Below, piece after piece: positions 1 through 42,779 of a stretch of DNA of 42,779 nucleotides. Within the stretch, counting starts at the first letter, position 1. Each line of letters begins with the position of its first letter. The stretch lies in the IMG/VR virus record IMGVR_UViG_3300045988_181578, one strand, 5' to 3'. Origin of the DNA: a virus. Position numbers and translations under genes: made by a program. Under the pieces are notes generated by a model. That model saw only the letters and a list, made by a program, of their open reading frames with translations. It was not told where the DNA came from and made no database searches.

Positions 1-277
1 GACCGTCAGATTGTCGGGCAGGGACGTAATGCCCGTGTCGCTCAAATCAAACGAATCGCCGACCGTCAGATTGTCGGGCAGTGACGTAATGCCCGTGCCA
101 CGCAAGTTCAGCCAACCGCCGACCGTCAGATTGTCGGGCAGGGACGTAATGCCCGTGTCGCTCAAATCCAACGAATCGCCGACCGTCAGATTGTCGGGCA
201 GTGACGTAATGCCCGTGCCGCTCAAGTTCAGCCAACCGCCGACCGTAAAATTGTTGGGCAGGGACGTAAAATCATAA
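1..277. repeat. 60-bp near-perfect direct tandem repeats (about 4.6 copies) encoding 20-aa LRR units
   Basis: The unit gaccgtcagattgtcgggcag(g/t)gacgtaatgcccgtg(t/c)cgctcaa(a/g)t(c/t)(a/c)a(a/g)c(g/c)aa(t/c)cgcc repeats head to tail. The same array is present at 42480-42779. Confidence 0.9.
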
Positions 278-2049: not shown

Positions 2050-2399
2050 TAGTGATGATAACTCCCGTTTGCTTGTTTCTTCCAACTGCGATTGAAGTTG
2101 ATTGTCATCTTTTTCTGAATCGCATCGTACAGTTCGTCGTCGGCATCGGCGCAATGCTTTACAATCGCCTTGCAGGTGAACATACCGATAGACGCTTCAA
2201 AGCGAAACCAGAGCGCGGAAGCCACGATAAAGCAGTCAGCCAATTCCGTGATTTGCTTTTCGGGGTCGGCTGTTTCCGCCCGCCATTCGTCAAATTCTTC
2301 GTCCAGTTTAAGCAACTGTCCCGCCTTGTCAGCATCTTTGAACGTAACAGTGTGCCAATCTGCAATTTTCTTTGCCAAGTCGTAAAATTCTTGTTTCAT
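2049..2399 (-). CDS. MazG-like nucleotide pyrophosphohydrolase-like protein
   Basis: EEFDEWRAE...ITELADCFIVASALWFRF resembles the MazG EEhxE / ELADvl helices. RBS aagga; ATGA overlap with the upstream gene. Confidence 0.4.
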   Translation of the reverse strand: MKQEFYDLAKKIADWHTVTFKDADKAGQLLKLDEEFDEWRAETADPEKQITELADCFIVASALWFRFEASIGMFTCKAIVKHCADADDELYDAIQKKMTINFNRSWKKQANGSYHH

Positions 2400-3361
2400 T
2401 TTGATTCCTTTCGAGGTGAGCATTTAAGGTATTCATCAATTACCGTTTTTAAACCGAGATGATTCATACAGTAATCGTACTGTTTGGGATGGGTTTGCTT
2501 CATTTTGTCGAATTTTGTTTCACCCTTCTTTTCGCAATGAAGCCCGTACATACAAAACATACAACCCGTTCTGTGCACGCCTGTCGTATACAGTTTTCCG
2601 TTGTATTCTTTGATTTCTCCATAAACGGAAGGTATATCAAGATTAAAACGGCGAATGTACTCCAAAATGTCTTGCTCCGTCCAAAATGATAGCGGTTTGC
2701 TCTCAGGGTGTTTTGCCGAAAATGCGTTGCAATTCGTGCCTAAGTATTTTTGCCAGCGCAGACGACTTTCCTCAGCCATCGTTCCGAGAATCGGATGTCG
2801 CCCGCTTTCCTTTTCAAACTTTTTTGCTGGATTCTTTTTCATCACGTCACAGCATTTGTTTGAAATCTCAAACGGAGCGTTTATAAGCGGTTGCCAGCAA
2901 TTCGACAAACGAGACATTGACCCTCGCGTTCCGTCTGGTAAAAGTCTTCCGTTCATACGGACGTCTTTCAGTTTGTCGGATTTTGAGTGGCGCATATCGT
3001 AAATGTATCTCGACTGCTCTTTTGAAATGATTGGATAGCCATATTTTTCAAGAACTTGTTTGAACGTGTATTTCGGCTTTATCCATATCACGTTTTCCGT
3101 ATTTTTAACGTGCTGACGCAGTTCTGGGTATTCCAAGCCAGTATCCACAAAAACTGCTGGGATGTCGGCGCAAGTTTTGATTGACCGAGCGATATGTAGC
3201 AGGACTGTGCTGTCTTTGCCTCCAGAAAAGCTGACAAAAACCTGACCGTCATATTGAAGATACCACTCCAATATCAATTCTTTCGTCCGTTTAATTTTCT
3301 CGTCAATCGGCAATTTCAACAATGCGAGTTTTTCGTCTTTTGTCATTTTGAGTCCTTTCAT
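2396..3361 (-). CDS. phosphoadenosine phosphosulfate (PAPS) reductase-family protein (PP-loop ATP pyrophosphatase)
   Basis: SFSGGKDS PP-loop motif and a C-terminal Cys cluster GCMFC...C. Start alternatives are 3361 (ATGA-coupled) or 3346 (RBS aagga). Confidence 0.8.
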   Translation of the reverse strand: MKGLKMTKDEKLALLKLPIDEKIKRTKELILEWYLQYDGQVFVSFSGGKDSTVLLHIARSIKTCADIPAVFVDTGLEYPELRQHVKNTENVIWIKPKYTFKQVLEKYGYPIISKEQSRYIYDMRHSKSDKLKDVRMNGRLLPDGTRGSMSRLSNCWQPLINAPFEISNKCCDVMKKNPAKKFEKESGRHPILGTMAEESRLRWQKYLGTNCNAFSAKHPESKPLSFWTEQDILEYIRRFNLDIPSVYGEIKEYNGKLYTTGVHRTGCMFCMYGLHCEKKGETKFDKMKQTHPKQYDYCMNHLGLKTVIDEYLKCSPRKESK

Positions 3362-3510
3362 TTTTTTGTTGCACAAAAAAAGTAGGCGCGCTTTTCGGCT
3401 TCTTCACGACTAAATTCAGCGTCAAATTCCAAAATAGCCGCACGTTCTTCAAAGTCTTCAAATTCAGCGTTTGAAAAATCAACCGCCGCCAATTTTGCAT
3501 AGTCTATCAT
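3358..3510 (-). CDS. small acidic hypothetical protein (50 aa)
   Basis: MIDYAKLAAVDFSNAEFEDFEERAAILEFDAEFSREEAEKRAYFFCATKK. ATGA overlaps at both ends link it into the operon. Confidence 0.35.
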   Translation of the reverse strand: MIDYAKLAAVDFSNAEFEDFEERAAILEFDAEFSREEAEKRAYFFCATKK

Positions 3511-3824: not shown

Positions 3825-4722
3825 TCCGCAATTCCTTTATTTCCGACCCCGTATAATTCACGGAAAGGACTTCGTAAGCGTCTTCATACTGCCCGCGCTT
3901 CAAGTCATAGTACAGGCGCGCCGCTTCGTTTCTAAAGCCACCGAATCGGTTTTTACGGATACAACAAAACGTCGCCTTGCGCGCACTTGTAGTTGACAGC
4001 TCATTCATTTCGTCATCGGGCGCAAACATAATAACAACCGTTGCTTCCTTAACCTTATTTGAGCTTCCGATAAATTCATCCATGGACGGGATTTTGAAAA
4101 GCTTTTGCCCAAACATCGGCTTACGCAAATGCGATATAGCAACGACCGCCATTTTCGTTTCATCCTGCACTTGCCGAATCGTCTTCATCAGCATTGTTTG
4201 GTGGATGTTGTCGTTCAAGTCGTAAGCGTCTTTTTCGACATAATCCAAGTGGTCAATAATCAGCAATTCGCAACCCGCTTCTTTTTCTTTCAGCATAGCA
4301 TCGACAAGCTTTTCGATTGTGAAATTCGGTTGTCTGTGAAAAACGTGCAAGCCTTTAAACGCCACATCCATTGCCGAGTCGATTTCGTTCACGATATCTT
4401 CAGTCATCAAACTGTTTGCACCGCCCTGCATAAACGCGCGTTCGGAAATGTCATAGCGTTTCGTCAGTTCAAGAAACTTCAAATACCCGACGTGCATTTC
4501 AAGGTCGTCTTCAAAGTTCTCAAGCGAAAACAGGGACACTTTGCACCGATTACGGTTTTTAAGCGCGATACTGTTTGCGATTGTGGATTTTCCCGCGCCG
4601 CTTCGGCTTCCGATTAAAATCAAATCGCCTTTCCCGATGCCGTACAGCGTCTTGTCGAGGTAATTGATTCCGAAAACGCCTACATTTTTGTTGGAATTGA
4701 CTCCCGAAAAATATGTTGTCAT
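3814..4722 (-). CDS. DnaB-like helicase C-terminal (RecA-fold ATPase) domain protein
   Basis: Walker A GSRSGAGKST, Walker B LLIIDHLD, and ISHLRK. ATGA overlap with the replisome-organiser gene. Confidence 0.8.
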   Translation of the reverse strand: MTTYFSGVNSNKNVGVFGINYLDKTLYGIGKGDLILIGSRSGAGKSTIANSIALKNRNRCKVSLFSLENFEDDLEMHVGYLKFLELTKRYDISERAFMQGGANSLMTEDIVNEIDSAMDVAFKGLHVFHRQPNFTIEKLVDAMLKEKEAGCELLIIDHLDYVEKDAYDLNDNIHQTMLMKTIRQVQDETKMAVVAISHLRKPMFGQKLFKIPSMDEFIGSSNKVKEATVVIMFAPDDEMNELSTTSARKATFCCIRKNRFGGFRNEAARLYYDLKRGQYEDAYEVLSVNYTGSEIKELRNEI

Positions 4723-5471
4723 TTCTCAAGCTCCTGTTCAATTATTTGTTTAAGCCGTGTTCGCGCCCTCTGGATAAAGAACTCGTCCCCCTGTGCTTTC
4801 ATCTGTTCCAAATACGCCATTTGGTTTTTAACAGCTTCCCGATTTAAAACGTGGGATATATCTTTGAATGTTCGAGAGTTTCTAAGCCAGTTTCGCCAAG
4901 TTGCTATCCAATCTTTTTTGGTCGCCGTTGCTCCAGTTTTTCCTGCCCAGTAATCTTTGAATGTTTGATACTCTCTTTCTGCCGATTGAAACGGATTCAT
5001 TTTCACCGATTCGGTTTCAAAATCTTTTGGCATTGTTTCATTGAAGTACGGTGAGTTTTCAAAACGGCATCCTTTTGTGATTTCCGTTTTTTCTTTAGAA
5101 ATTTCTTTTTTTAATGTTTCGTTAGAAACATCAGAATCAGATTCAGAATCAGATTCAGAATCAGATTCATAGCGCATTTGCTTGCATTTGGTAGCATTTG
5201 GTAGCATTTGCTTGCATTTGGTAGCATTTGCTTTCCCTCCTAAACTACCAGCGTTTCTGCGCTTTTCACAAACTTTTTCATATTTTTCAGCGTTTTCGTC
5301 AAAGTAATTTTTGAAAGGCAAGAATACGGCTTTCATCAATCCATTTAATTTAGGTTCGACGCCGTTCTGATAGTCTTTAATCGCCAAAAACAAATCGGCG
5401 ATTTGTTCTTTGTTGAGTTCGTCAAGAACTGAAAGCGATTCCGTGTAAATTAAAAATGATTTTTTTTTCAT
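4719..5471 (-). CDS. putative phage replication initiation / replisome organiser protein (DnaD-like C-terminus)
   Basis: N-terminus LFLAIKDYQNG...KRRNAGSLGG is organiser-like; C-terminus FKDYWAGKTGATATKKDWIATWRNWLRN is DnaD/Phg_2220_C-like. It sits next to the helicase gene. RBS gaaagg. Confidence 0.5.
   Translation of the reverse strand: MKKKSFLIYTESLSVLDELNKEQIADLFLAIKDYQNGVEPKLNGLMKAVFLPFKNYFDENAEKYEKVCEKRRNAGSLGGKANATKCKQMLPNATKCKQMRYESDSESDSESDSDVSNETLKKEISKEKTEITKGCRFENSPYFNETMPKDFETESVKMNPFQSAEREYQTFKDYWAGKTGATATKKDWIATWRNWLRNSRTFKDISHVLNREAVKNQMAYLEQMKAQGDEFFIQRARTRLKQIIEQELEK
5139..5240. repeat. short tandem repeats inside the replisome-organiser linker
   Basis: gattcagaatca x3-4 encodes SDSESDSESDSD; gcatttgcttgcatttggta units encode ANATKCKQM x2. 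Confidence 0.8.
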
Positions 5472-6761: not shown

Positions 6762-8213
6762 TTATCCCTCGTTTTTAAGCGGTTGCAAAGACAAGCGACC
6801 GTTTGCGGACAATTTCGCTTTTCCGCCGTCCAGCGTGTAGATTTCGGAAGCGTTGTTGTCCATCATAAATTTTTTGATGAGCAACTTGTTTTTTTCGTTT
6901 TTGTCATCATCCAATCGGATTGATTCGGCGAAAAACAATGCTTCGTTAAACCACTCGTGCGCGTCCTGATCGTCGATTTGGTCTTGTGAAGACAACATAA
7001 CCGCACCTGACGCATTGAACTTTTCAACCTCTTGATAGCACGCAAAGTCCTTTTTCATCAAAGACAGCGTTTCTTTGTTTATTTCTGGAGGCGTGTTGGA
7101 GGCGATTGCCTTTTCAAAATTCCGCAACGCCTCTTTGATTGCTTCCTGCATTTCGGGGATAATTCCGTAAACAGACGTATAAATTTCGGGCGAAAAACGT
7201 TCTTTCACTTCTTCAAAGCGTTTCTGTTCAATCAAGGACGCAATTACGCCGCGATTAAATGTGGTGTCCTTTTCCAAAGGCAAAAGCATTGAACTGATTA
7301 CAGCCGCTTCACGTCCGCAAATAAAGGAATTGTATTGGATTTGAAACAAATACTGCCATTGCAAACCGCGCGTTAAAGCATCTTCTTTTAACGCTTTGAA
7401 GTGCTGGATTGTCTTGCACTCCCAAACAGGATTCCGTTCTGTAATTGGACGCCCATTCACGTCGTCATACTGTTCTTTTTTTGAAACGGCGTATCCGTCT
7501 GGTGAACAGGAAGAAAAGGGGCTAACGTCGGGGCGTTTAATGAAGTCTTGACAACGCGTGATTTCAAAATCCACATTTTCACGCAAAGCCCATTCAACGT
7601 AAGATTCGGCGGCGTGTCCGTACACATTCAGTTCGTCGGGGATAGGCGGTTGACGGTATCCGTTTTTGATTTTGTGAAAAACAAGATAGCCCGTTGTATA
7701 CAACGGTTCGTTTAAAAACGAAGTGGCGGCGCGTTCCCCCATTATTTCTATTAACCGTTCTTTCGACACAAAGGATTTAATAACGGCGGCGATTTCAGAA
7801 CCGCCGATTGTCCCTTGTTTTTCGGACAGCCATTCGTCCGAGTTTTGAACAATGTTTCGCATCCGTCCGACGTTTTCCAAAATTTCTTTGCGCTTTTCGG
7901 CGGCGAAGTCTTCAAACGATTGTCCTTTTTCCCGCAGATAGTCTTTGAGCAAAACATTTTTACGGGATTCCAAATAGGCGCGCGTTTCGGCATCGACCAA
8001 ATCCAAGCCGTGATTCCACATTCCTTTGTCGTGAATGGCGGCGTGGCATTCGGCGCACAGCGGTAACAGGTTTTTAACGTCCCAGCGTAATAACTGATTA
8101 TTGCGCCCGATTAAATGGTGGACGTGTTCGGCGGGCTTACCGCACGGGCATTTCTGCCCGATACGCAAGCGCGGATATAACGAATCCAGTTCTTTTTCCA
8201 TTTCTTCACGCAT
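6762..8213 (-). CDS. HNH endonuclease domain fused to a YqaJ-like (lambda Exo-type PD-(D/E)XK) recombination exonuclease, plus an about 200-aa C-terminal region of unknown function
   Basis: HNH motif CPCGKPAEHVHHLIGRNN...LCAECHAAIH. YqaJ signature SDEWLSEKQGTIGGSEIAAVI with SPDGYAV and WECKT (D, ExK). Start taken at MREEMEK (RBS aggaagg), because the upstream 354-nt gene occupies the longer ORF's 5' part. Confidence 0.65.
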   Translation of the reverse strand: MREEMEKELDSLYPRLRIGQKCPCGKPAEHVHHLIGRNNQLLRWDVKNLLPLCAECHAAIHDKGMWNHGLDLVDAETRAYLESRKNVLLKDYLREKGQSFEDFAAEKRKEILENVGRMRNIVQNSDEWLSEKQGTIGGSEIAAVIKSFVSKERLIEIMGERAATSFLNEPLYTTGYLVFHKIKNGYRQPPIPDELNVYGHAAESYVEWALRENVDFEITRCQDFIKRPDVSPFSSCSPDGYAVSKKEQYDDVNGRPITERNPVWECKTIQHFKALKEDALTRGLQWQYLFQIQYNSFICGREAAVISSMLLPLEKDTTFNRGVIASLIEQKRFEEVKERFSPEIYTSVYGIIPEMQEAIKEALRNFEKAIASNTPPEINKETLSLMKKDFACYQEVEKFNASGAVMLSSQDQIDDQDAHEWFNEALFFAESIRLDDDKNEKNKLLIKKFMMDNNASEIYTLDGGKAKLSANGRLSLQPLKNEG

Positions 8214-8559
8214 TGTTTTCACCTTCCTCTGAAATGACGCCGTGTTCAAGCATCGTTCTTTTTCTGTTTCGACAACGGCGCATCGCGATATTATGCTTGC
8301 GGCGTTTATACCAATGATTTTTCCAAAAACGCGCCTTTCGCGCTTCCAACATTTTTTCTTTCCGCGACGGGAAAAGAATAAACTGGATTGTGCGGCGGGA
8401 AACATTGAACAGTTTAGCCAATCCTTTAATCGACGCGCCGTTGCACCACATCGTTTTGATGTTTTCCCGTTCTTCATCGGTCAATTTGACGCGGGCATCC
8501 TGTTCTTTCGGCACGCGCACCTTGTCGATATTGACGGCGGGGGCTTTTTTCTTTTCCAT
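8206..8559 (-). CDS. HTH DNA-binding protein with basic C-terminus
   Basis: IKGLAKLFNVSRRTIQFIL HTH. TAATG overlap with recT. Confidence 0.45.
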   Translation of the reverse strand: MEKKKAPAVNIDKVRVPKEQDARVKLTDEERENIKTMWCNGASIKGLAKLFNVSRRTIQFILFPSRKEKMLEARKARFWKNHWYKRRKHNIAMRRCRNRKRTMLEHGVISEEGENNA

Positions 8560-34943: not shown

Positions 34944-35083
34944 TTTATCTTTATTTCTAACCCAATAAGGCACAGCATAAAAATAACACCAGAATTTACA
35001 GCGTTTTTTTCCAAAGCTATTGCACCCCATAGACAAAAGATTGCCCAAGCTATCGTTAGAATAAAATAAACCCAATCTTTCAT
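34940..35083 (-). CDS. small membrane protein (47 aa)
   Basis: MKDWVYFILTIAWAIFCLWGAIAL... with a strong RBS gggaggt. Confidence 0.4.
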   Translation of the reverse strand: MKDWVYFILTIAWAIFCLWGAIALEKNAVNSGVIFMLCLIGLEIKIK

Positions 35084-35202
35084 TTTTTTACCTCCCTCAA
35101 TCCAACATAAAAGACAACACAATCGTCGTCAACGCGGCGAAAAAAATCCCATCCGCCGTTCCTTGGCAAGCCATACAGCACGGAACGAGATAAGCCAAGT
35201 AT

Positions 35203-35619
35203 TTAAGATTTTTCATCGATTACCCCATTTCTGTTTTCATAACGAGTAAACCCATTGCGGACTGGTACGTCTTGATAAGGCGATGTCCATCCCTCAAAAA
35301 CGTTCCCACGCACTTCGATGTCATACGACGACAATTCACTCAAATCGTACCGCACAACGCCTTTAACCCCGACCGAGTATCCGCCATTGTCCCAGTATAC
35401 GCGCATAAAGTCCTTTTCCCAATCATCCCAAAGAACGTCACCTGCGTAAATCATATAGCCGTTCTTGTCGAAACGTCCCGTGCTTTTTTGAATAATACAG
35501 TTTTTTAAAGGTTTCATTTTATCATCATAAGCAACACCGTTTTGATTGATGAAAAAGTTTCCGTCTAAAAAACGCTTTTCATCAAGCGACCAAACACGAA
35601 ATTTTAACTTGTCATTCAT
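35203..35619 (-). CDS. YopX-family protein (paralog 1)
   Basis: MNDKLKFRVW N-terminus. RBS aaggaaag. Confidence 0.55.
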   Translation of the reverse strand: MNDKLKFRVWSLDEKRFLDGNFFINQNGVAYDDKMKPLKNCIIQKSTGRFDKNGYMIYAGDVLWDDWEKDFMRVYWDNGGYSVGVKGVVRYDLSELSSYDIEVRGNVFEGWTSPYQDVPVRNGFTRYENRNGVIDEKS

Positions 35620-35634
35620 TTTTCTTTCCTTTCT

Positions 35635-36006
35635 TCATCCGATACCTTGTTCGTCTTGATATTCGTCAAAAGCGGCGACGGCGCAATTCATACAGAAGTT
35701 CCAAAGCGGTTCTTTGTCACGATAAAGCCGCTTTGCGATTTTCGGATAATTCGACCGGACAAATTCTTCAACAGCGGCGGCATAAGCTGTCTGTTCTTTA
35801 TTCCAACGCGTCAGAATTGAAACGTCTGCCAAGCCAAGCGGCGCGTCTTTCCGTGCATTTTCAACGGCGTGACGGGTCATTTTGGTTAATTCGCCAAGCA
35901 TAGCCGAAGACGCTTTATCCCACCTGTTTATAACGTCAATCGTCCAACTTTCAGACACAACCGCGTTATAAATCACGCCGTCAATCTCGTATTCTGTATT
36001 TAACAT
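35635..36006 (-). CDS. hypothetical protein
   Basis: 123-aa ORF in the operon. Confidence 0.45.
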   Translation of the reverse strand: MLNTEYEIDGVIYNAVVSESWTIDVINRWDKASSAMLGELTKMTRHAVENARKDAPLGLADVSILTRWNKEQTAYAAAVEEFVRSNYPKIAKRLYRDKEPLWNFCMNCAVAAFDEYQDEQGIG

Positions 36007-36018
36007 TTCGTTTCCATT

Positions 36019-36459
36019 TTAAAGTAAAGATAATTGCTTTGGTTCGTTTTCTTCCGCCCATTGACGCATAACCTTTAAAGCGTCATCAATGATAAAGTTT
36101 GTTGCAAAGACGGATTCAAAGTCCAAATCAGGATAGCCATATTCAGCGAATAAAGCCCGTACGCACTCTTTGCATTCGTTCATATTGTCCTGTTGCAATT
36201 CGATAGCCCAAACGCTTGCAAGGGCGGTTTGTGCGTCCTGACGGTTTTTGCATTTTTCAAGTTTGCGCCGATAAATTTCGACAACAAAATTCCCGTCCCC
36301 GCCCGACGGTTCAAGAAAGGTTTTTTCAGGCGCGAAAACGTCAATGTCTGCATTTTCTTCTTGCAACATATCGCACATCATTTTGACAACCCAATCGGGC
36401 GTAAAAATTTCGGTTCTGTTCCGCTCTCGCCCGCCTTTTGTGTAAAGTTTTTTAGCCAT
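36019..36459 (-). CDS. small SAM-methyltransferase-like protein (motif X FTP and motif I EPSGGDG present; no (D/N/S)PP(Y/F) motif IV seen)
   Basis: EIFTPDWVVKMMCDML...FLEPSGGDGNFVVEI. Confidence 0.45.
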   Translation of the reverse strand: MAKKLYTKGGRERNRTEIFTPDWVVKMMCDMLQEENADIDVFAPEKTFLEPSGGDGNFVVEIYRRKLEKCKNRQDAQTALASVWAIELQQDNMNECKECVRALFAEYGYPDLDFESVFATNFIIDDALKVMRQWAEENEPKQLSLL

Positions 36460-36886
36460 AAATCAAATCCCACTTGTCACCAAACAAAGACACTTTTTTA
36501 GTGTGTCCATTTCTAAAACGCTGAATAGCTCTCCGATAACGCAATTCGTCGCCTTTGCATATTTCCCGAAATGACTTCCCATTGTAAAAATGAACACTTC
36601 GCGCCCGCCCCTTATCAATACCTTTTAGGCTTTCATCAACCGTTCTGTCATAATGCTTTATTCGCCATAAGCAAGCGCGATATTCGGATATTGTTTTGCA
36701 TTTTTTAATCAAAGGAACTCCGTCAGAACACAATAAATAACTTTGACAAATTTTATCAATGGAAACAGCTTGTTCAACGGTCATCATCTTTTTTTGAATT
36801 CGCTTAACGACTGTACTGTAATTGATTCCGTTGTCTGCACAATACTGCCGCAAAGTCTTCCCTTTGAAAAAATACTTTATGCTCAT
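36452..36886 (-). CDS. DNA-binding protein with two tandem HTH-like modules
   Basis: FFKGKTLRQYCADNGINYSTVVKRIQK and FYNGKSFREICKGDELRYRRAIQRFRNG repeat units. Start at MSIKYFF, 4 nt after the upstream stop. Confidence 0.45.
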   Translation of the reverse strand: MSIKYFFKGKTLRQYCADNGINYSTVVKRIQKKMMTVEQAVSIDKICQSYLLCSDGVPLIKKCKTISEYRACLWRIKHYDRTVDESLKGIDKGRARSVHFYNGKSFREICKGDELRYRRAIQRFRNGHTKKVSLFGDKWDLIYG

Positions 36887-36887
36887 T

Positions 36888-37100
36888 TTAATCCTGACTG
36901 TTTGCGTGTATTTCCGCTTCTGTTTTTGCGCTAGACAATTCGTAATCCAAATACGCCAAGAAAGACCAACCGACAGACATTTTAATCGGTTCAATACTGA
37001 TCAACGCGTAACTTTTACGCCCGATTTTGCTTATCCGAAAAACGCCTGATTCCCAATAAGTCAGTTTATCCGTTTTGATTTTTTTCCATTTCAGTTTCAT
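36888..37100 (-). CDS. hypothetical protein (70 aa)
   Basis: RBS gaggga. MKLKWKKIKTDKLTYWESGVFRISKIGRK.... Confidence 0.4.
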   Translation of the reverse strand: MKLKWKKIKTDKLTYWESGVFRISKIGRKSYALISIEPIKMSVGWSFLAYLDYELSSAKTEAEIHANSQD

Positions 37101-37113
37101 TTTTTATTCCCTC

Positions 37114-37950
37114 TCAAAAAAGTGAAAATTGCCCGTTCTTTTCCTCTTTAAAAGCCGCCACGGGCTGTTTAACGGGCGGGGTAGGTTCTAACACCTTTTT
37201 GACGCTTTCAACGCCTGACGGGGCGTTTACTGGCGTTTCCTGTTCGTTTATAACCGGCAACGCTTTCGACTCGGCATATTTTACAAAATTCCTGAATTTC
37301 AGATAATTAAGCACATAAAACGGCGTATGCAATTCTTCCCATATTTCAAGCGTCAACGTGTCGCCTATGCAGACGATAGCGGGCGCCCCCAAAAGCGAAA
37401 GCGTTATATAGCACATATAAGCGCACCGATAGTCTATGTCTTGAGCTACCGTCAGCGATTGCGTTTGAAAGTTATACCCGTTTTCTTTCATCGTTTCCAA
37501 GAAAGCGACAATCATCGCGCCGCCGCCCGCCGCTGGTTCGTTTATGCCTACATATCCATTTTCGGCAATCGCCGCGTCAATCTGTTCTTTGTCAAAGGAC
37601 ATCTGGGCGCAAAGTCGCGCGACGCTGTACGGCGTGAAGAACTGCCCCGTCTTGCTATTAGACGCGCCGAGTTCTTCAAAACATTCACCAAGAAAATCGC
37701 CGAATTGAGCTTCAAAGCCTTTTGTCGTGATTGCCAACAGTTCGGGAAAGCGCGCCTGTTCGTCGGGTTCATACTTCCCAATCAAATCAAGATACTTCTT
37801 TTCCCGCTCCTGTTTAAAATCGACGGCGTTTGAAATGCTCATCGCCGCCATTGAAACAAAGTCGGTAAAGACCTGTTCGGGCGTATGTCGCCCTGCAATC
37901 ACATCAATCGTCTTGAGAAAGTCTTTTTTCGCCGAATCATACAACGTCAT
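37114..37950 (-). CDS. HsdM/N6-adenine-methyltransferase-like protein lacking a recognisable catalytic NPPF/Y motif
   Basis: GQFFTPYSVARL (motif X), GINEPAAGGGAMIVAF (motif I), and the HsdM-like VAQDIDYRCAYMCYITLSLLG...GDTL block. No motif IV follows before the stop. Confidence 0.55.
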   Translation of the reverse strand: MTLYDSAKKDFLKTIDVIAGRHTPEQVFTDFVSMAAMSISNAVDFKQEREKKYLDLIGKYEPDEQARFPELLAITTKGFEAQFGDFLGECFEELGASNSKTGQFFTPYSVARLCAQMSFDKEQIDAAIAENGYVGINEPAAGGGAMIVAFLETMKENGYNFQTQSLTVAQDIDYRCAYMCYITLSLLGAPAIVCIGDTLTLEIWEELHTPFYVLNYLKFRNFVKYAESKALPVINEQETPVNAPSGVESVKKVLEPTPPVKQPVAAFKEEKNGQFSLF

Positions 37951-38189
37951 TATGACACCTTTTCTGTCGGTCTTAAAACTTCCAACAAAGCGGCGGCACG
38001 CTCCGTCAATTCAACGGGATGTTCTAAAAGGACGCGTTCCATTTTTTCGGAATACGGCTTTGAAACTGCGCGCCGTCCTTTTTCAACCATTGAAACATAG
38101 TTTTCATTGAATCCCGACATTTTAGCGTATTCAACGCGCGACCACCCCATTGCTTTACGGTAAAACCACATTTTTTCGTTTTGTGTCAT
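37950..38189 (-). CDS. XRE-family HTH transcriptional regulator
   Basis: FYRKAMGWSRVEYAKMSGFNENYVSMVEKGRR. Confidence 0.55.
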   Translation of the reverse strand: MTQNEKMWFYRKAMGWSRVEYAKMSGFNENYVSMVEKGRRAVSKPYSEKMERVLLEHPVELTERAAALLEVLRPTEKVS

Positions 38190-38488
38190 TTGTCCCCGCT
38201 TTCGTGAATGTTTCCAATTACATTATATTCATCAACAGGTGCTTCTTTCGCGTTCCCTGTAAGAATAAAACCAGCCATTGCATTTTCCCAATCAACACGC
38301 ATTTTTTCTTTGCGTATCAACATTATATCACCCTCGAAAATTAGAACGCCGTTTTTGTCTGTCAATCCCGTACATTGTTCTGCAATCAACCCGTCGGGCA
38401 AATCCCACGGCACAAAGTCTTCGGGATTTTCGACGTATTTTTTGTTTTCAACGTCGTAAATTCTGTATTTGAAACGGTCATTTGTCAT
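38186..38488 (-). CDS. YopX-family protein (paralog 2)
   Basis: MTNDRFKYRIYD...YNVIGNIHESGD. RBS agaggag. Confidence 0.65.
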   Translation of the reverse strand: MTNDRFKYRIYDVENKKYVENPEDFVPWDLPDGLIAEQCTGLTDKNGVLIFEGDIMLIRKEKMRVDWENAMAGFILTGNAKEAPVDEYNVIGNIHESGDK

Positions 38489-38564
38489 CCTTTTAACTCC
38501 TCTTTCTTTTCGTAAAAAACATAAGTAGTTCCACCGCAAAACGGGAAAGACTTCAAGTCTTCAC

Positions 38565-38783
38565 TCATTCCAGATTCTCCCTTACTTTTTCCTCGATTTC
38601 TTCAATTTTTTCATCAGACAACAGCGGCATAATGTCTACACCGCCGACACAAACGGAATTAACGTAAACATCAGTCTCTGTACCCCTTGAAACACCCCAA
38701 CTGTAAGGCTCAAGGGAATACGTTTCTGTTTCAAAGCTAATTGACAGCAAAACGCCGTCAACCGTGATTTCGATTTCAGCCAT
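38565..38783 (-). CDS. hypothetical protein (72 aa)
   Basis: RBS aaggaaaagg. First gene of the minus-strand operon. Confidence 0.45.
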   Translation of the reverse strand: MAEIEITVDGVLLSISFETETYSLEPYSWGVSRGTETDVYVNSVCVGGVDIMPLLSDEKIEEIEEKVRENLE

Positions 38784-40408: not shown

Positions 40409-40687
40409 TCCGATTGAAACACCGTCGTAAAAGTCTTTGTATTCAAAGAACTTTCCGTGGAACTCGTCCCCGTCTTCAATGGCTTTCAAAAATCGCCTTA
40501 AATTGTTAACGGTTGTTCGGACTTCGGAATAAAAGTTATCCCTCCAATACGATTCAAGAGTTTCATAAACTTTAACTCACGATTGGCTTTGTTGCCGTTT
40601 TGCCAGAGACTCCACGCCGATTTTTTGATTGTCGCAATCCTGCTTGTCCGTCGATACCCGCAAATATCCGTACACCGTCATTTTCAT
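40409..40687 (-). pseudogene. decayed serine recombinase (resolvase/invertase/integrase-type) N-terminal remnant
   Basis: MKMTVYGYLRVSTDKQDCDNQKIGVESLAKRQQSQS*VKVYETL...NNLRRFLKAIEDGDEF keeps the Y-x-R-V-S-T-x-x-Q nucleophile motif and the R..L..l..GD block, but has an in-frame TGA and has lost the D..SG and DRLGR motifs. ATGA overlap with the MT-A70 gene stop. Coordinates are approximate. Confidence 0.4.
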
Positions 40688-41238
40688 ATTTCCTTGTCAA
40701 ATTTTTCAGTTTCATTTCCCCAGCAATCCCAACCTACCCGATGCTGACGGGCAAATAGTTCGATTCGTTCCCCGCCGCAAAGACTTTCGATTAAAGAATA
40801 CTGTTCATCAGGTTTTCGGGAATGTTCACGAACAACGCCTTGAATAACATTCCTTGTCGATTTGTTAAGCACATGGGGATGCCCGCGCGTTCCGACAAGC
40901 AACAATTCGGAAGCGCAACGGAAAATATATCCAGTTCCGAAAGCGGTTTTCCCGTTCTTCGTCGTTTTATGCCAAGATGCGCCCGTCTTGTATTTAAACC
41001 CCCAAGCCGCCATTGTTTCCAAAGCTTCGGGCAACATTGGAAACGTCGCCCACATAAAGAGGAAACAGTCTTTGTCGGCAATGTCGATAACAGGCAAAGT
41101 CTTAATGTCATTTGTCGGCATACAAGAATAATGCCCTTCCGCTCCTTTTGCCGTGATTCCTTTTGACGAAAACGTTTTGAACTTCCATGGCGGGTCGGCA
41201 AGAATTACGCCATATTTTTTATTCGGGAACGGAATCAT
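40684..41238 (-). CDS. MT-A70-family N6-adenine DNA methyltransferase
   Basis: ILADPPWKF (DPPW catalytic motif). RBS aagga before MIPFPNKKYG. Confidence 0.8.
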   Translation of the reverse strand: MIPFPNKKYGVILADPPWKFKTFSSKGITAKGAEGHYSCMPTNDIKTLPVIDIADKDCFLFMWATFPMLPEALETMAAWGFKYKTGASWHKTTKNGKTAFGTGYIFRCASELLLVGTRGHPHVLNKSTRNVIQGVVREHSRKPDEQYSLIESLCGGERIELFARQHRVGWDCWGNETEKFDKEI

Positions 41239-41557
41239 TTTTTTTGTCCTTATATTCAAAAGAACGTCCTTTAGTTTTCTTTCCTTTCCCGATTATTTTC
41301 GCAACGGATGTTCCGTATTTTGACATTGCGTCGTGTACCGAATCGAAAACTTCATTTGTTTCCACACAAATAACGCGACGGGAACAGAAGCCCCCTTTAC
41401 GCTTTTTAGACGACGGAATCCGTTTTTTCATTTCTGCAATAACGCCGTCGGGTGTGATTTTTGAACACTTCAACAAAAAGTCGGCAACCGCCTGTTCGGG
41501 CGTATCAAAACCGATAGGCGCAACAGCCGCTTTTTTCAAAACAACAAGATATTTCAT
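41219..41557 (-). CDS. hypothetical protein
   Basis: RBS aagga. Overlaps the MT-A70 gene start by 20 nt. Confidence 0.45.
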   Translation of the reverse strand: MKYLVVLKKAAVAPIGFDTPEQAVADFLLKCSKITPDGVIAEMKKRIPSSKKRKGGFCSRRVICVETNEVFDSVHDAMSKYGTSVAKIIGKGKKTKGRSFEYKDKKNDSVPE

Positions 41558-41559
41558 CC

Positions 41560-41820
41560 TTATTTTTCCTTTTCAATCAATTTGAACGCATCCGCTCTTA
41601 AGTCGTCGATGCCGTTTACGATTTCGGATAAAGCGTCTTTAAGCCGCTCTATTTCTTCTTCTAATTGTCGGACAGGTGTTCGATTATTCCAAGCTTGCGC
41701 TTCTTTTCCCAAAAAAGAAAATTCAACAGATGCGCCACAAAACGGATTTGTGCATTCTACCCGACCTCTCTCAAGTCTTGCTTCACTTCCACAAAAAGGA
41801 CACGGTTTAAGTTCTTTCAT
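41560..41820 (-). CDS. Lar-like restriction alleviation protein (Zn-ribbon) with C-terminal coiled coil
   Basis: MKELKPCPFCGSEARLE...C..FC matches the Lar-family CPFCG motif. RBS aaaggaaag. Confidence 0.55.
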   Translation of the reverse strand: MKELKPCPFCGSEARLERGRVECTNPFCGASVEFSFLGKEAQAWNNRTPVRQLEEEIERLKDALSEIVNGIDDLRADAFKLIEKEK

Positions 41821-41862
41821 ATTCTTTCCTTTCGATAAAAAGGGGTGGAAGTCAAAAAACAC

Positions 41863-42004: not shown

Positions 42005-42779
42005 TTACCCGAAAAACTTTTTCAATTCACTGTTTCCATACTGCCCTTCCGTGATTTTAATAATTTCGGAAACAGTCATAGTTTCTTGAATTTTATCGCT
42101 GTTCGTTTCGACAAAATGACGTGTTCCCGCTTCGCAAGCACCCGTGATAACACGATACATTTTAATCGCTTCTTCTTTCGTCAAAACACTGTTTTTATGC
42201 AGATGCTTATACGCAGACGTATCGCGTTTGCCGATTTTGTACATCAAAGAAGCGCGTGCTTCTTCTATTGTTTCCCCGTGAGCGAATCTTTCGCCGTCAG
42301 TAACAATGAATTGAACTTTAAGACCGATTTTGACTTTCCAAACGTTCTTCTTTTGGGAAAGAACTTCGCAGAAAATTCCGTCAAAAATTCTATATTTGCC
42401 CCCTTTCCAAGACAAAAGATTTTCAATGTTGAAAGTCAATTTTTTGACTTTTTCTCTTTCTTTTTGAGTAATGCCCGTGCCGCACAAGTCCAGCGAACCG
42501 CCGACCGTCAGATTGTCGGGCAGTGACGTAATGCCCGTGCCGCTCAAGTTCAGCCAACCGCCGACCGTCAGATTGTTTGGCAGGGACGTAATTTTCGTGT
42601 CGCTCAAATCCAACGAACCGCCGACCGTCAGATTGTCGGGCAGGGACGTAATGCCCGTGTCGCTCAAATCAAACGAACCGCCGACCGTCAGATTGTCGGG
42701 CAGTGACGTAATGCCCGTGTCGCTCAAGTTCAGCCAACCGCCGACCGTCAGATTGTCGGGCAGGGACGTAATGCCCGTG
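42005..42779 (-). CDS. LRR protein, C-terminal part (LRR array plus about 160-aa non-repeat C-terminal domain); continues from the window start
   Basis: Track ORF 42005..42727 carries TSLPDNLTVGGSLDLSDTGI repeats. The frame stays open to the window edge. Confidence 0.6.
   Translation of the reverse strand, partial: TGITSLPDNLTVGGWLNLSDTGITSLPDNLTVGGSFDLSDTGITSLPDNLTVGGSLDLSDTKITSLPNNLTVGGWLNLSGTGITSLPDNLTVGGSLDLCGTGITQKEREKVKKLTFNIENLLSWKGGKYRIFDGIFCEVLSQKKNVWKVKIGLKVQFIVTDGERFAHGETIEEARASLMYKIGKRDTSAYKHLHKNSVLTKEEAIKMYRVITGACEAGTRHFVETNSDKIQETMTVSEIIKITEGQYGNSELKKFFG
42480..42779. repeat. 60-bp tandem repeats (5 copies), the same family as at 1-277
   Basis: Units are identical or near-identical to the window-start array. 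Confidence 0.9.

Follow-up and report, generated by a model that had tools for sequence, protein, structure and literature searches.

The window analysed here (the whole stretch of viral DNA, 42,779 nucleotides, of IMG/VR record IMGVR_UViG_3300045988_181578) encodes two methyltransferase-like proteins, of 278 and 146 aa, both of which are intact, short SAM-binding halves of gamma-class N6-adenine DNA methyltransferases. Judging from its sequence, each of them ends in a peptide predicted to dock on the sliding clamp, and this terminal motif is the most informative feature of both proteins. It is possible, though short of an even chance, that the two act as clamp-docked, non-catalytic SAM-binding modules on newly replicated DNA of the element, with a function in counter-restriction.

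Organization of the Locus

The two genes belong to a block of four ORFs, all on the minus strand. The block and the relevant genes located 5' of it are the following:

41560..41862, minus strand: Lar-like restriction-alleviation gene (phrog_599, 6.5e-08; PF14354, 27.1 bits, just below the 28.6 cut-off)
40684..41259, minus strand: complete MT-A70-type adenine methyltransferase, with DPPW at nt 41196 (PF05063, 1.6e-33; phrog_359, 3.8e-78)
37950..38189, minus strand: 79-aa Xre-type HTH gene (PF01381, 7.7e-08)
37114..37950, minus strand: 278-aa HsdM-like half-methyltransferase (phrog_5696, full length, 4.6e-72; Pfam N6_Mtase, partial)
36888..37100, minus strand: 70-aa ORF without recognisable family
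36452..36886, minus strand: 144-aa repeated-HTH protein (ATG at 36886; internal repeat)
36019..36459, minus strand: 146-aa half-methyltransferase of the Eco57I/MmeI/PglX-like clade (phrog_21201, full length, 7.5e-17)

The initial annotation of this DNA had placed a 70-aa ORF and a protein with HTH repeats between the two half-methyltransferases, and both are present. The 70-aa ORF gave no match in Pfam, PHROG, NCBIfam and PADLOC searches, and a non-homologous 82-aa ORF takes its place in a relative (L088). The HTH protein, listed as a 180-aa ORF with a TTG start (36994..36452), realistically starts at ATG 36886, which comes after the stop codon of the 70-aa ORF; its residues 5-31 and 107-133 form an internal repeat (pairwise E=4e-05). 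It matches HTH_23, HTH_Tnp_1 and sigma-70 region 4 weakly, as well as the DNA-binding part of a PHROG HNH-endonuclease family, and its stop codon lies within an 8-nt overlap with the start of the 146-aa gene. The arrangement of two half-methyltransferases flanking a double-HTH protein holds for the window but is not conserved: in a close relative, the gene in between encodes a different, 249-aa Zn-ribbon/sigma-like protein. On the other side, the Xre gene ends and the 278-aa gene begins within TAATG, stop codon and ATG sharing 1 nt, and this gene order is also seen in L088. The MT-A70 and Lar-like genes previously noticed near the block share its strand, and the former belongs to the same leftward gene block. 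INPHARED contains no near-identical phage; distant relatives at the protein level are found in Faecalibacterium, Vibrio and Flavobacterium phages.

Architecture of the Two Proteins

The features of the 278-aa protein are:

37630..37644, minus strand: motif X, QFFTP (residues 103-107; F105, T106 and P107 invariant in 50 homologues)
37519..37539, minus strand: motif I, EPAAGGG (residues 138-144; G142 and G144 invariant)
37354..37365, minus strand: motif III, GDTL (residues 196-199; G196 and L199 nearly invariant, 197 being D or N)
37132..37260, minus strand: disordered E/A/P-rich linker (residues 231-273; pLDDT 42-54)
37117..37131, minus strand: QFSLF, predicted beta-sliding-clamp-binding motif at the C-terminus (GQFSLF, stop codon directly after)

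Three parts can be distinguished in this protein: (i) an N-terminal helical domain (residues 1-93) followed by motif X; (ii) beta1 with motif I, beta2 with motif II (D171), beta3 with motif III, a hairpin strand and a terminal helix; and (iii) the disordered linker, which leads to the clamp-binding motif. In both proteins, motifs II and III were placed from AF2 secondary structure and conservation. The AF2 model of the 278-aa protein has about 225 ordered residues (pLDDT of at least 94 for residues 1-220, with a dip to 82-84 at residues 91-110, and below 55 for residues 231-278), which form an HsdM-like helical domain and a three-stranded half-Rossmann fold with one hairpin strand before disorder sets in. 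The top Foldseek matches of this model are HsdM 3lkd, PacII M and BsaXI.

HsdM, from Type I R-M systems (PF02384, EcoKI, PDB 3lkd), is the best match in both sequence and fold. The two proteins have in common the N-terminal helical domain, with a D-x-x-G-x-x-Y/F-E/M helix, and the sequences of motifs X (GQ(F/Y)FTP), I ((E/D)PAxGxG) and III (G(D/N)TL); in both, beta2 is followed by an acidic residue. But while HsdM continues, the 278-aa protein stops at the point of NPPF, without beta4-beta7, motifs IV-VIII and the C-terminal HsdS-binding region, and it has instead a disordered tail with a clamp motif that HsdM does not have. Its gene, unlike that of HsdM, is found by itself on mobile elements, with neither hsdS nor hsdR beside it. 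In agreement with this, the alignment to Pfam N6_Mtase covers profile positions 20-123 of 311 and goes no further, and the alignment to EcoKI HsdM ends ahead of the HsdM NPPF. The earlier description of a protein with QFFTP, EPAAGGG and GDTL but no NPPF/Y is hence borne out. The T209-P210 pair, invariant in the family, is probably a helix cap in the predicted structure and not motif IV, because it is preceded by the hairpin strand and begins a helix. As a degenerate NPPF it is unlikely, since a 4-residue turn joins the preceding strand to beta3, which would place it at the far edge of the sheet.

The features of the 146-aa protein are:

36397..36411, minus strand: motif X, EIFTP
36292..36312, minus strand: motif I, EPSGGDG
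36022..36036, minus strand: QLSLL, clamp-binding-like motif at the C-terminus (KQLSLL, stop codon directly after)

This protein had been credited with motifs X and I only. Both are present, but so are motifs II and III: in the model, E87 closes beta2 and D126 follows beta3, ahead of a short disordered tail. The pLDDT exceeds 88 for residues 21-130, which include three strands, and the block mean for residues 141-146 is 49. The top Foldseek matches are CamA, LlaGI, DrdV, BsaXI and PglX, and PADLOC gives MTase_II, mad2 and IIG matches. Methyltransferase domains of the Eco57I/MmeI/DrdV/LlaGI/BREX-PglX/CamA kind are the best fold matches (query-normalised TM-score 0.5-0.6), and motifs X, I, II (E) and III (D/N-x-L) are common to these domains and the 146-aa protein. 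In contrast to these enzymes, the latter has only the first ~135 residues of the domain and lacks NPPY, TRD and nuclease, while the QLSL[FLI] tail is an addition in its phage lineage. Its IMG/VR relatives are mostly short and without NPPY (77/80); full-length NPPY relatives, of 454-523 aa, occur in phages. The 146-aa protein matches phrog_11371 (383 positions) only in the C-terminal part of the profile, at positions 285-368, a hint at a fused form.

Absence of the Catalytic Half

Motifs X, I, II and III are kept in both proteins, and the SAM-contact residues (FTP, GxG, the acidic residue ending beta2 and the D/N after beta3) are invariant or nearly so in the family alignments; both proteins are thus predicted to bind SAM. 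Motif IV ([NDS]PP[YFWH]), whether in place or displaced, is absent from the six frames of 35000-38600, and the sole genuine one in the window is the DPPW of the MT-A70 gene. The models contain three strands (plus the hairpin in the 278-aa protein) and neither includes beta4-beta7, motifs V-VIII, a TRD or an HsdS-binding C-terminus. As motif IV, beta4-beta7 and the DNA-recognition domain are absent, the two proteins cannot methylate DNA by the normal mechanism.

Truncation or artefact is ruled out as the origin of this architecture by family size, conserved lengths, confident folds and the lack of motif IV in any frame. The 278-aa protein has an identical copy on 4 contigs, and all of its close homologues (72/72) are 163-290 aa long. 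The families phrog_5696 (278 aa) and phrog_21201 (146 aa) are length-conserved and both proteins are full-length members with confident models, so that the remnants of a disrupted methyltransferase proposed in the initial annotation find no place here. Also ruled out is a homing-endonuclease insertion in which the 70-aa and HTH ORFs would have invaded and split one gene: the 146-aa protein repeats motifs X-III, supplies none of IV-VIII, and comes from a different methyltransferase clade than the 278-aa protein (the profile-profile match between both families covers motifs X and I only). Apart from the complete MT-A70 enzyme, no second gene with a motif IV-VIII half was found in a methyltransferase-like context, and the neighbouring ORFs have no similarity to methyltransferases. 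Fold searches of BFVD and PDB gave no characterised short homologue, and PADLOC/NCBIfam gave no full-length above-threshold match, the partial sub-threshold ones (MTase_I, MTase_II, mad2, IIG) covering the SAM-binding part alone.

The Putative Terminal Clamp-Binding Motif

Bacterial clamp motifs reportedly follow the consensus QL[SD]LF (with a QLxLxh variant), described by Dalrymple and colleagues in 2001, and the beta-clamp clients that carry it include Pol II, Pol IV, UmuC, MutS, Hda and the delta subunit. Among the six-frame ORFs of at least 60 aa in the window, strict clamp motifs are found only at the C-termini of the two half-methyltransferases. As in the known clients, the consensus pentapeptide comes at the very end of a flexible linker that is itself poorly conserved. 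In some half-methyltransferase lineages the motif is N-terminal, as in Hda (QLSF in Enterobacterales plasmid members; EQLSLF in P0290). To our knowledge, no known clamp client has a methyltransferase-like body. The terminal motif of both proteins had not been mentioned in the initial annotation.

In the 278-aa family, the motif lies within the last 14 residues in 79/150 cluster representatives, versus 4.1% of internal 14-residue windows. With a wider regular expression it is found in 70/80 genomic loci, which span Firmicutes, Burkholderiales, Pseudomonas, Gastranaerophilales and others. The family logo reads Q-L/M/F-S/T/A-L-F, with the stop codon immediately after in 76%. Neither the length nor the sequence of the linker is conserved (29-105 residues between the conserved TP and the motif's Q, 5th-95th percentile), and the motif is kept across phyla at the tip of this variable, disordered segment. 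Approximately 40-45% of the representatives have no recognisable terminal motif, although some of them have degenerate Q..LF tails, and a short subfamily ends directly after the conserved TP. In the 146-aa family, the motif is confined to the closest relatives, whose last residues are QLSLF or QLSLI. A link between lack of the motif and phages with their own polymerase is not supported: PolA is encoded in only 1/4 such loci (L003). No PolA was found in the flanks of the 80 genomic loci.

Distribution, Genomic Context and Fusions

The 278-aa family comprises at least 2,273 clusters at E<=1e-30, nearly all of 210-340 aa, and was traced to about 524 loci in bacterial genomes and about 2,130 plasmids, of which 1,470 are conjugative. 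Databases label its members as active methylases ("N-6 DNA methylase"), and no description of the family was found in the literature, including its Klebsiella plasmid homologue WP_004152751.1. On a Klebsiella IncFII(K) plasmid, the family's gene maps to the leading region, between psiB/psiA/ssb/parB and traM. A Lar gene lies near the half-methyltransferase in the window, in the relative L088, in L182, which is a phage contig, and in L178, a Burkholderia plasmid. Across 80 genomic loci of various taxa there is no universal conserved neighbour or partner gene; neighbours are lineage-specific: for instance, loci in Burkholderiales have a PRTRC ParB cassette and those in Lachnospiraceae have RecD-like and YqaJ-like genes.

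Two kinds of fusion can be differentiated: (i) P0292 and P0293, in which ArdcN and MPTase (a complete ArdC) and the half-methyltransferase domain form one polypeptide, without clamp tail; and (ii) P0255, in which the half-methyltransferase domain is joined to a complete small NPPF methyltransferase, the only such fusion among the 150 representatives. The methyltransferase part of P0255 resembles a separate 187-aa leading-region methyltransferase (28% identity, E=7e-15) of the Klebsiella plasmid, which also carries a half-methyltransferase. With ArdC and the polyvalent anti-restriction proteins, the family shares the context of early entry and establishment, besides the fusions, but the window proteins themselves, unlike ArdC, have neither an ArdcN domain nor a zincin peptidase. 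The survey of polyvalent proteins reported active methylase-helicase (DarB-like) modules, not a truncated half-methyltransferase domain (PMC5512222).

Proposed Mechanism

No gene for a polymerase or a clamp turned up in the window, so that the phage would have to replicate via the host replisome. In the counter-restriction reading, the tails would dock both modules on host clamps left behind on fresh phage DNA, and the plasmid and ICE relatives would dock likewise on freshly synthesised DNA of their elements. The SAM-loaded modules could then act locally as counter-defence factors against those restriction or defence complexes that depend on SAM and match them in class. As for targets, we infer Type I systems for the 278-aa protein and, for the 146-aa protein, systems of the Type IIG, IIL, ISP or BREX-like kinds; as for the mode of action, they might be decoys or dominant-negative partners, or they might modulate the host enzyme and tip it away from cleavage. 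What is observed is the truncated architecture, the conserved SAM-contact motifs, the terminal motif and its conservation, the fusions to ArdC and to a methyltransferase, the spread over mobile elements and, in one conjugative plasmid, a place in the leading region. The initial suggestion of a dead, SAM-binding, anti-restriction-like factor fits the SAM motifs, the Klebsiella leading region, the ArdC fusions and the nearby Lar gene, the function itself being a proposal. A pure protein-mimic decoy would not obviously need conserved SAM-contact residues. The P0255 fusion suits an adaptor or activator at least as well as an inhibitor.

More tentatively, the 278-aa family may constitute an undescribed class: a replisome-tethered pseudo-methyltransferase which disarms or reprograms SAM-dependent defences in cis behind the fork. 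In such a class, archaeal variants with PIP-like tails would ride PCNA in place of the bacterial clamp, and other members might be tethered through the N-terminal clamp motif or the ssDNA-binding domain of ArdC. The sliding clamp would then be a general counter-defence platform for phages, ICEs and conjugative plasmids, and thousands of "N-6 DNA methylase" annotations would be wrong.

If the counter-restriction reading is true, a gene on approximately 3% of sequenced plasmids (among them Klebsiella, Enterobacter and Acinetobacter conjugative plasmids), and also in many temperate phages and ICEs, would be a clamp-docked establishment or counter-defence factor and no methylase, and a widespread database label would need correction. 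The sliding clamp would join the host hubs that mobile elements exploit against restriction, and the tail-clamp contact would be a defined, testable peptide-pocket interaction affecting plasmid spread. Even if the anti-restriction role is wrong, a conserved and stable half-Rossmann module, predicted to bind SAM, is of structural interest.

Alternative Explanations

The foremost alternative, though unlikely, is that the half-methyltransferase is a replisome adaptor or activator, which would bind the clamp and recruit or stimulate an active orphan methyltransferase encoded apart from it (in this phage MT-A70, on plasmids the small enzyme of the leading region), nascent element DNA being methylated as it is made. 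In eukaryotes, catalytically inactive methyltransferase paralogues are known as partners (DNMT3L, METTL14), and DNMT1 is coupled to PCNA; the half-methyltransferase would be an analogue of these in bacterial elements. The phage proteins resemble these in having a methyltransferase fold without catalytic residues and a putative sliding-clamp tether, but they have half a fold where DNMT3L and METTL14 have a complete one, and homology exists only at the level of the class I methyltransferase superfamily. This alternative is favoured by P0255, whose methyltransferase is homologous to the Klebsiella 187-aa enzyme, and by the active orphan methyltransferase within a few kb of the half-methyltransferase in the window, L001, L003, L086 and L088. 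Furthermore, two methyltransferases of leading regions, M.EcoGIX and M.BceJIII, reportedly work on ssDNA together with DNA polymerase I (PMC7736820). Their genomic niche is that of the half-methyltransferases, and so is the replication-associated anti-restriction logic, but they are active and have motif IV, and the association reported for them is with Pol I instead of the clamp. On the other hand, there is no conserved partner gene around the 80 genomic loci, the nearby methyltransferases come from unrelated families (MT-A70, N6_N4, C5, small gamma-like), early regions often carry orphan methyltransferases in any case, and the fusion is a single one among 150 representatives.

It is improbable that the function is clamp-directed host takeover or replication control, whereby the hydrophobic cleft of the host clamp would be occupied and clients (Hda, MutS/L, translesion polymerases) displaced, or clamps redirected to the element, the methyltransferase-like body being a bulky or SAM-sensing regulatory domain. 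One phage with two independent clamp-motif proteins and the presence of the genes in replication and recombination neighbourhoods would agree with it. Polypeptides of S. aureus phages reportedly compete for the clamp. Mu C is reported to target the clamp and to use it for late transcription (PMC12867686). Nevertheless, the phage itself depends on the host clamp, and takeover leaves unexplained the ArdC fusion, the leading-region position, the association with Lar and the recruitment of two defence-type methyltransferase clades.

For the 146-aa protein only, it is conceivable but very unlikely that it serves as co-factor to the DNA-binding or sigma-like protein encoded just upstream, to which it is translationally coupled. 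In phage T4, gp33/gp55 and gp45 link transcription to DNA-loaded clamps, and the 146-aa protein would do the same. Its gene always overlaps the upstream gene, by 4-8 nt, and the latter encodes in relatives a Zn-ribbon protein with a weak sigma match (phrog_1740, 0.0013) and a sigma-region-4-like C-terminus; the fused form suggested by phrog_11371 and the use of the clamp by Mu C in late transcription point the same way. However, the sigma-like assignment is weak, the upstream protein of the window is not clearly homologous to that of the relatives (13-22% identity), and most of the 146-aa family has no clamp motif.

Highly improbable is a SAM sponge or a new SAM-cleaving enzyme that would starve SAM-dependent defences, similar in function to the T3 SAM lyase but with another fold. 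The SAM-contact motifs are indeed kept without the transferase site, but stoichiometric sequestration of an abundant metabolite is implausible, and a soluble SAM-degrading enzyme needs no clamp tether, ArdC fusion or HsdM-like N-domain; no candidate catalytic residues were identified either. Lastly, decayed or truncated genes, or an assembly artefact, would account for the missing motifs IV-VIII and nothing else, and their probability is negligible in view of length-conserved families with thousands of members, the identical protein on 4 contigs, the confident folds, the lack of a displaced motif IV in any frame and the strong purifying selection on the motifs and the terminal peptide.

Gene block and methyltransferase motifs

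The two methyltransferase-like proteins of the window, hereafter the large (278 aa) and the small (146 aa) half-methyltransferase (half-MTase), are encoded in a minus-strand block whose genes, according to the ORF listing and the sequence, are closely packed:

38539..38186, minus strand, YopX protein
38189..37950, minus strand, Xre-type HTH protein
37950..37114, minus strand, 278-aa protein (large half-MTase)
37100..36888, minus strand, 70-aa ORF
36886..36452, minus strand, repeated-HTH protein (the ORF listing gives a 180-aa TTG ORF from 36994)
36459..36019, minus strand, 146-aa protein (small half-MTase)
36006..35635, minus strand, 123-aa protein
35619..35203, minus strand, second YopX protein

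The Xre stop and the start of the 278-aa gene share 1 base, and 8 bases are common to the end of the HTH gene and the start of the 146-aa gene. The two YopX paralogues (35203-35619 and 38186-38539) bracket the block.

It is firmly supported that both proteins are non-catalytic as regards the standard mechanism. The SAM-binding motifs reported in the initial annotation were all found in the sequence: (i) QFFTP, EPAAGGG and GDTL in the large protein; and (ii) EIFTP and EPSGGDG in the small one. Likewise, the reported lack of catalytic motif IV was borne out, with no (D/N/S)PP(Y/F/W/H) in any frame of 35000-38600; the sole genuine motif IV of the window is the DPPW within the complete MT-A70 enzyme (40684..41259). 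As to where the alignment stops, the Pfam N6_Mtase profile covers the large protein at profile positions 20-123 of 311 only, and the alignment of an HMM of the large family (that of the 278-aa protein) with EcoKI HsdM extends over DDFGDMYE, GQYFTP and DPAAGTAG and ends before NPPF. The small protein had been credited with motifs X and I only, but it also has motif II (E87) and motif III (D126).

Conservation and predicted folds

That both proteins are intact and conserved is also firmly supported. The large protein matches phrog_5696 from end to end (4.6e-72), as the small protein does phrog_21201, and all 72 close homologues of the former fall within 163-290 aa. When 1.84 billion cluster representatives were searched with a profile, 2,273 large-family clusters were recovered at E<=1e-30, nearly all of 210-340 aa; at E<=0.001 the hits number about 9,000. 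In a pattern scan with one genome per species, the large family was found at 524 loci, whose hosts are Oscillospiraceae, Lachnospiraceae, Burkholderiales, Pseudomonas, sphingomonads, Treponema, Gastranaerophilales and one archaeon. Among 80 relatives of the small protein in IMG/VR, 77 are of 88-276 aa (five of them cut by the contig end) and lack NPPY, the other three, at 454-523 aa, being enzymes of full length whose NPPY falls within residues 141-199. The conserved lengths, the end-to-end PHROG matches and the size of the large family, together with confident AlphaFold2 models, exclude that these proteins are truncations or remnants of a disrupted methyltransferase, as had been contemplated.

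In the AlphaFold2 model of the large protein, pLDDT is >=94 over residues 1-220, except for residues 91-110 (82-84), and some 225 residues in total are ordered: a helical N-domain is followed by the motif X helix, strands beta1 (134-138), beta2 (165-171) and beta3 (191-197), a hairpin strand (202-208) and a closing helix, beyond which the chain is disordered through to the C-terminus. The model of the small protein, also confident, has strands at 48-50, 83-87 and 122-124, helices between them and a disordered tail. In both family alignments, the positions at which real enzymes contact SAM show no or almost no variation; it is firmly supported that the SAM-contacting half of the fold has been kept. 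T209-P210, invariant in the large family, is unlikely to be a degenerate NPPF: in the model it follows the hairpin strand and opens a helix, and it is read instead as a helix cap.

Foldseek matched the large protein to Type I HsdM, PacII M and BsaXI, and the small protein to CamA, LlaGI/LlaBIII, DrdV, BsaXI and BREX PglX. The profiles of the two families match each other in motifs X and I only; the two proteins stem from different clades of gamma-class adenine methyltransferases.

A putative clamp-binding motif at the C-terminus

The beta-sliding-clamp-binding consensus, reportedly defined by Dalrymple et al. in 2001, is QL[SD]LF. A consensus motif of this kind, GQ(L/F)SLF, closes the sequence of many large-protein homologues, and in the window the large and small proteins terminate in GQFSLF-stop and KQLSLL-stop, respectively. 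This terminal motif was overlooked in the initial annotation. When every ORF of at least 60 aa was scanned in the six frames of the 42.8 kb for the strict form Q[LFM][SD][LF][FLI], exactly two matches were obtained, both of them these C-termini. Within the large family, a penta- or hexapeptide variant occurs in the last 14 residues of 79 of 150 cluster representatives, against 4.1% of internal 14-residue windows of the same proteins; with a wider expression, the motif is found at 70 of 80 genomic loci. Its logo reads Q, L (66%)/M/F, S (47%)/T/A/D, L (87%) and F (90%), and the stop codon follows directly in 76% of cases. The motif ends an E/A/P-rich segment, predicted to be disordered, of varying length (29-105 residues from the conserved TP to the Q, 5th-95th percentile). 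It is retained as DQLALF in Burkholderiales, GQLTLF in Oscillospiraceae and KQLSLF in Gastranaerophilales, and the homologue of Pseudomonas pCAR1 has the tail GQQIALF. It is firmly supported that the C-terminal peptide of the large and small proteins matches the clamp-binding consensus and is under selection. In the small family, the tail (QLSLF, QLSLI or QLSLL) is confined to the closest relatives and looks like a recent acquisition of this phage lineage.

Part of the large family lacks the C-terminal motif and, judging from the sequences, other tethers appear to take its place. The versions of Enterobacterales plasmids (L086:8866-9699, L171:381-1214, L172:375-1205, L174:432-1202, L176:366-1199), which lack it, start with MSQLSFADVF, MSQLSFASFF or MSNQLSFDALL, followed by a variable spacer; this QLSF looks like the clamp motif relocated to the N-terminus, in a Hda-like manner. 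One cluster representative (P0290) has ...EQLSLFD at its N-terminus. Two others (P0292, P0293) lack a tail and consist of a complete ArdC protein, with its ArdcN ssDNA-binding domain and zincin peptidase, to which the half-MTase domain is joined at the C-terminus. The single archaeal homologue (Methanolapillus millepedarum, L052, 8001-8732) ends in ...IIKSIFDFQ and another representative (P0168) in GQTSIFDFL; as a lead, these tails resemble PCNA-binding PIP boxes and not the bacterial clamp motif. A further representative (P0258, 450 aa) carries after the half-MTase a PcfK-like domain (PF14058, a conjugative-plasmid family of unknown function) and the clamp-like C-terminus QQVSIFDMMG.

Distribution and genomic context

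The large family resides overwhelmingly on mobile elements. In PLSDB, about 2,130 plasmids match it, 1,470 of them conjugative, with hosts that include Klebsiella (~690), Enterobacter, Acinetobacter and Pseudomonas. In one IncFII(K) plasmid, from K. pneumoniae, this gene (product WP_004152751.1) is in the leading region, with ssb/parB/psiB/psiA on one side and traM on the other; leading regions are enriched in anti-defence genes and orphan methyltransferases (PMC11541004). In Burkholderiales, it lies immediately upstream of the PRTRC (ParB-related, ThiF-related) mobile-element cassette (L178 7150-12840, plus 20 Burkholderiales loci, e.g., L032 9268-10950). In three phage or prophage contigs that are unrelated to one another (L001 6884-7729; L180 8886-9704 and 10450-11493; L181 10624-11609), Phage_integrase (tyrosine-recombinase) genes lie directly next to the large-family gene or overlap it.

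A Lar gene is beside or near the large-family gene in the window, in its close relative L088, in phage contig L182 and in Burkholderia plasmid L178. A PAPS-reductase-like gene is near it in an A. baumannii plasmid (L179, 3030-4121) and in L182 (17614-18685), and the window also has such a gene and a DUF6378 gene (2396-3376 and 1768-2154). These shared genes point to a recurring early-gene toolkit.

The close relative keeps the order MT-A70, Lar, YopX, Xre, large half-MTase, small ORF, X, small half-MTase, where X is a 249-aa Zn-ribbon/sigma-like protein different from the repeated-HTH protein of the window. In every case there is an overlap of 4-8 nt between the small half-MTase gene and the gene upstream of it (L088:4259-5008, L089:4219-5004, L090:4441-5004; window 36452-36886). 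The product of this upstream gene in the relatives is a Zn-ribbon protein that matches a sigma factor weakly and whose C-terminus is sigma-region-4-like; the repeated-HTH protein is non-homologous to it. phrog_11371 (383 positions) may be a fused form. A transcription-coupling role of the small protein is among the less likely explanations.

Possible function

These proteins are publicly labelled 'N-6 DNA methylase', 'type I R-M methyltransferase subunit' or 'hypothetical'. A survey of polyvalent ArdC- and methylase-containing proteins describes neither the truncated domain nor a clamp link (PMC5512222), and full-text searches found no literature on the large family. The half-MTases are rated as a pseudo-enzyme derived from a restriction-type methyltransferase together with a docking peptide that is already known. 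With a fair probability, they form a distinct functional class, whose function is putative; part of the family lacks the motif.

The tail would dock the half-MTases on host clamps and so put them on freshly synthesised element DNA, at the moment when the unmodified element turns into a restriction substrate. The SAM-loaded module could then interfere with, or reprogram, defence complexes that depend on SAM and belong to the matching class. Several findings speak for a role in counter-restriction or establishment that acts in cis: (i) the ArdC fusion, as an alternative DNA tether; (ii) the leading-region position; (iii) the Lar neighbours; and (iv) the recruitment of two different defence-type methyltransferase clades. 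In the main rival explanation, the half-MTase would be an adaptor or activator and carry an active orphan methyltransferase to the fork. This reading draws on a fusion of the half-MTase domain to a complete small NPPF methyltransferase (P0255), a homologue of the small methyltransferase that the Klebsiella plasmid encodes separately in its leading region, and on the published link of leading-region methyltransferases with replication (PMC7736820). Takeover by clamp blocking and SAM scavenging are less likely.

Phage genome and replication

The window has a full set of tail and baseplate genes (further structural ORFs come from the ORF listing) and the following replication and recombination genes: a DnaB-like helicase, an initiator-like protein with internal iterons, RecE/RecT-like proteins and RusA. 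No polymerase or clamp gene was detected and, hence, the phage must rely on the replisome of its host, for which Oscillospiraceae or Faecalibacterium are likely candidates. The initiator-like gene (4719..5471; DUF6291, with weak primosomal and replication-initiator PHROG matches) contains iteron-like tandem repeats at 5130-5233, in 6/12-bp and 10/20/30-bp units, which probably constitute a replication origin. The RecE-like exonuclease (571 aa, 6762-8477) has an HNH-endonuclease-like segment at residues 105-158 and its exonuclease core at 265-473.

A 60-bp tandem repeat is present at both ends of the window (1-269 and 42468-42779; 4.5 and 5.2 copies), which marks the window as a complete phage genome that is circularly permuted. 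The repeats fall inside a 240-aa ORF (42005..42727, minus strand) with no family match, and it is within this repeat-containing gene that the assembly broke.
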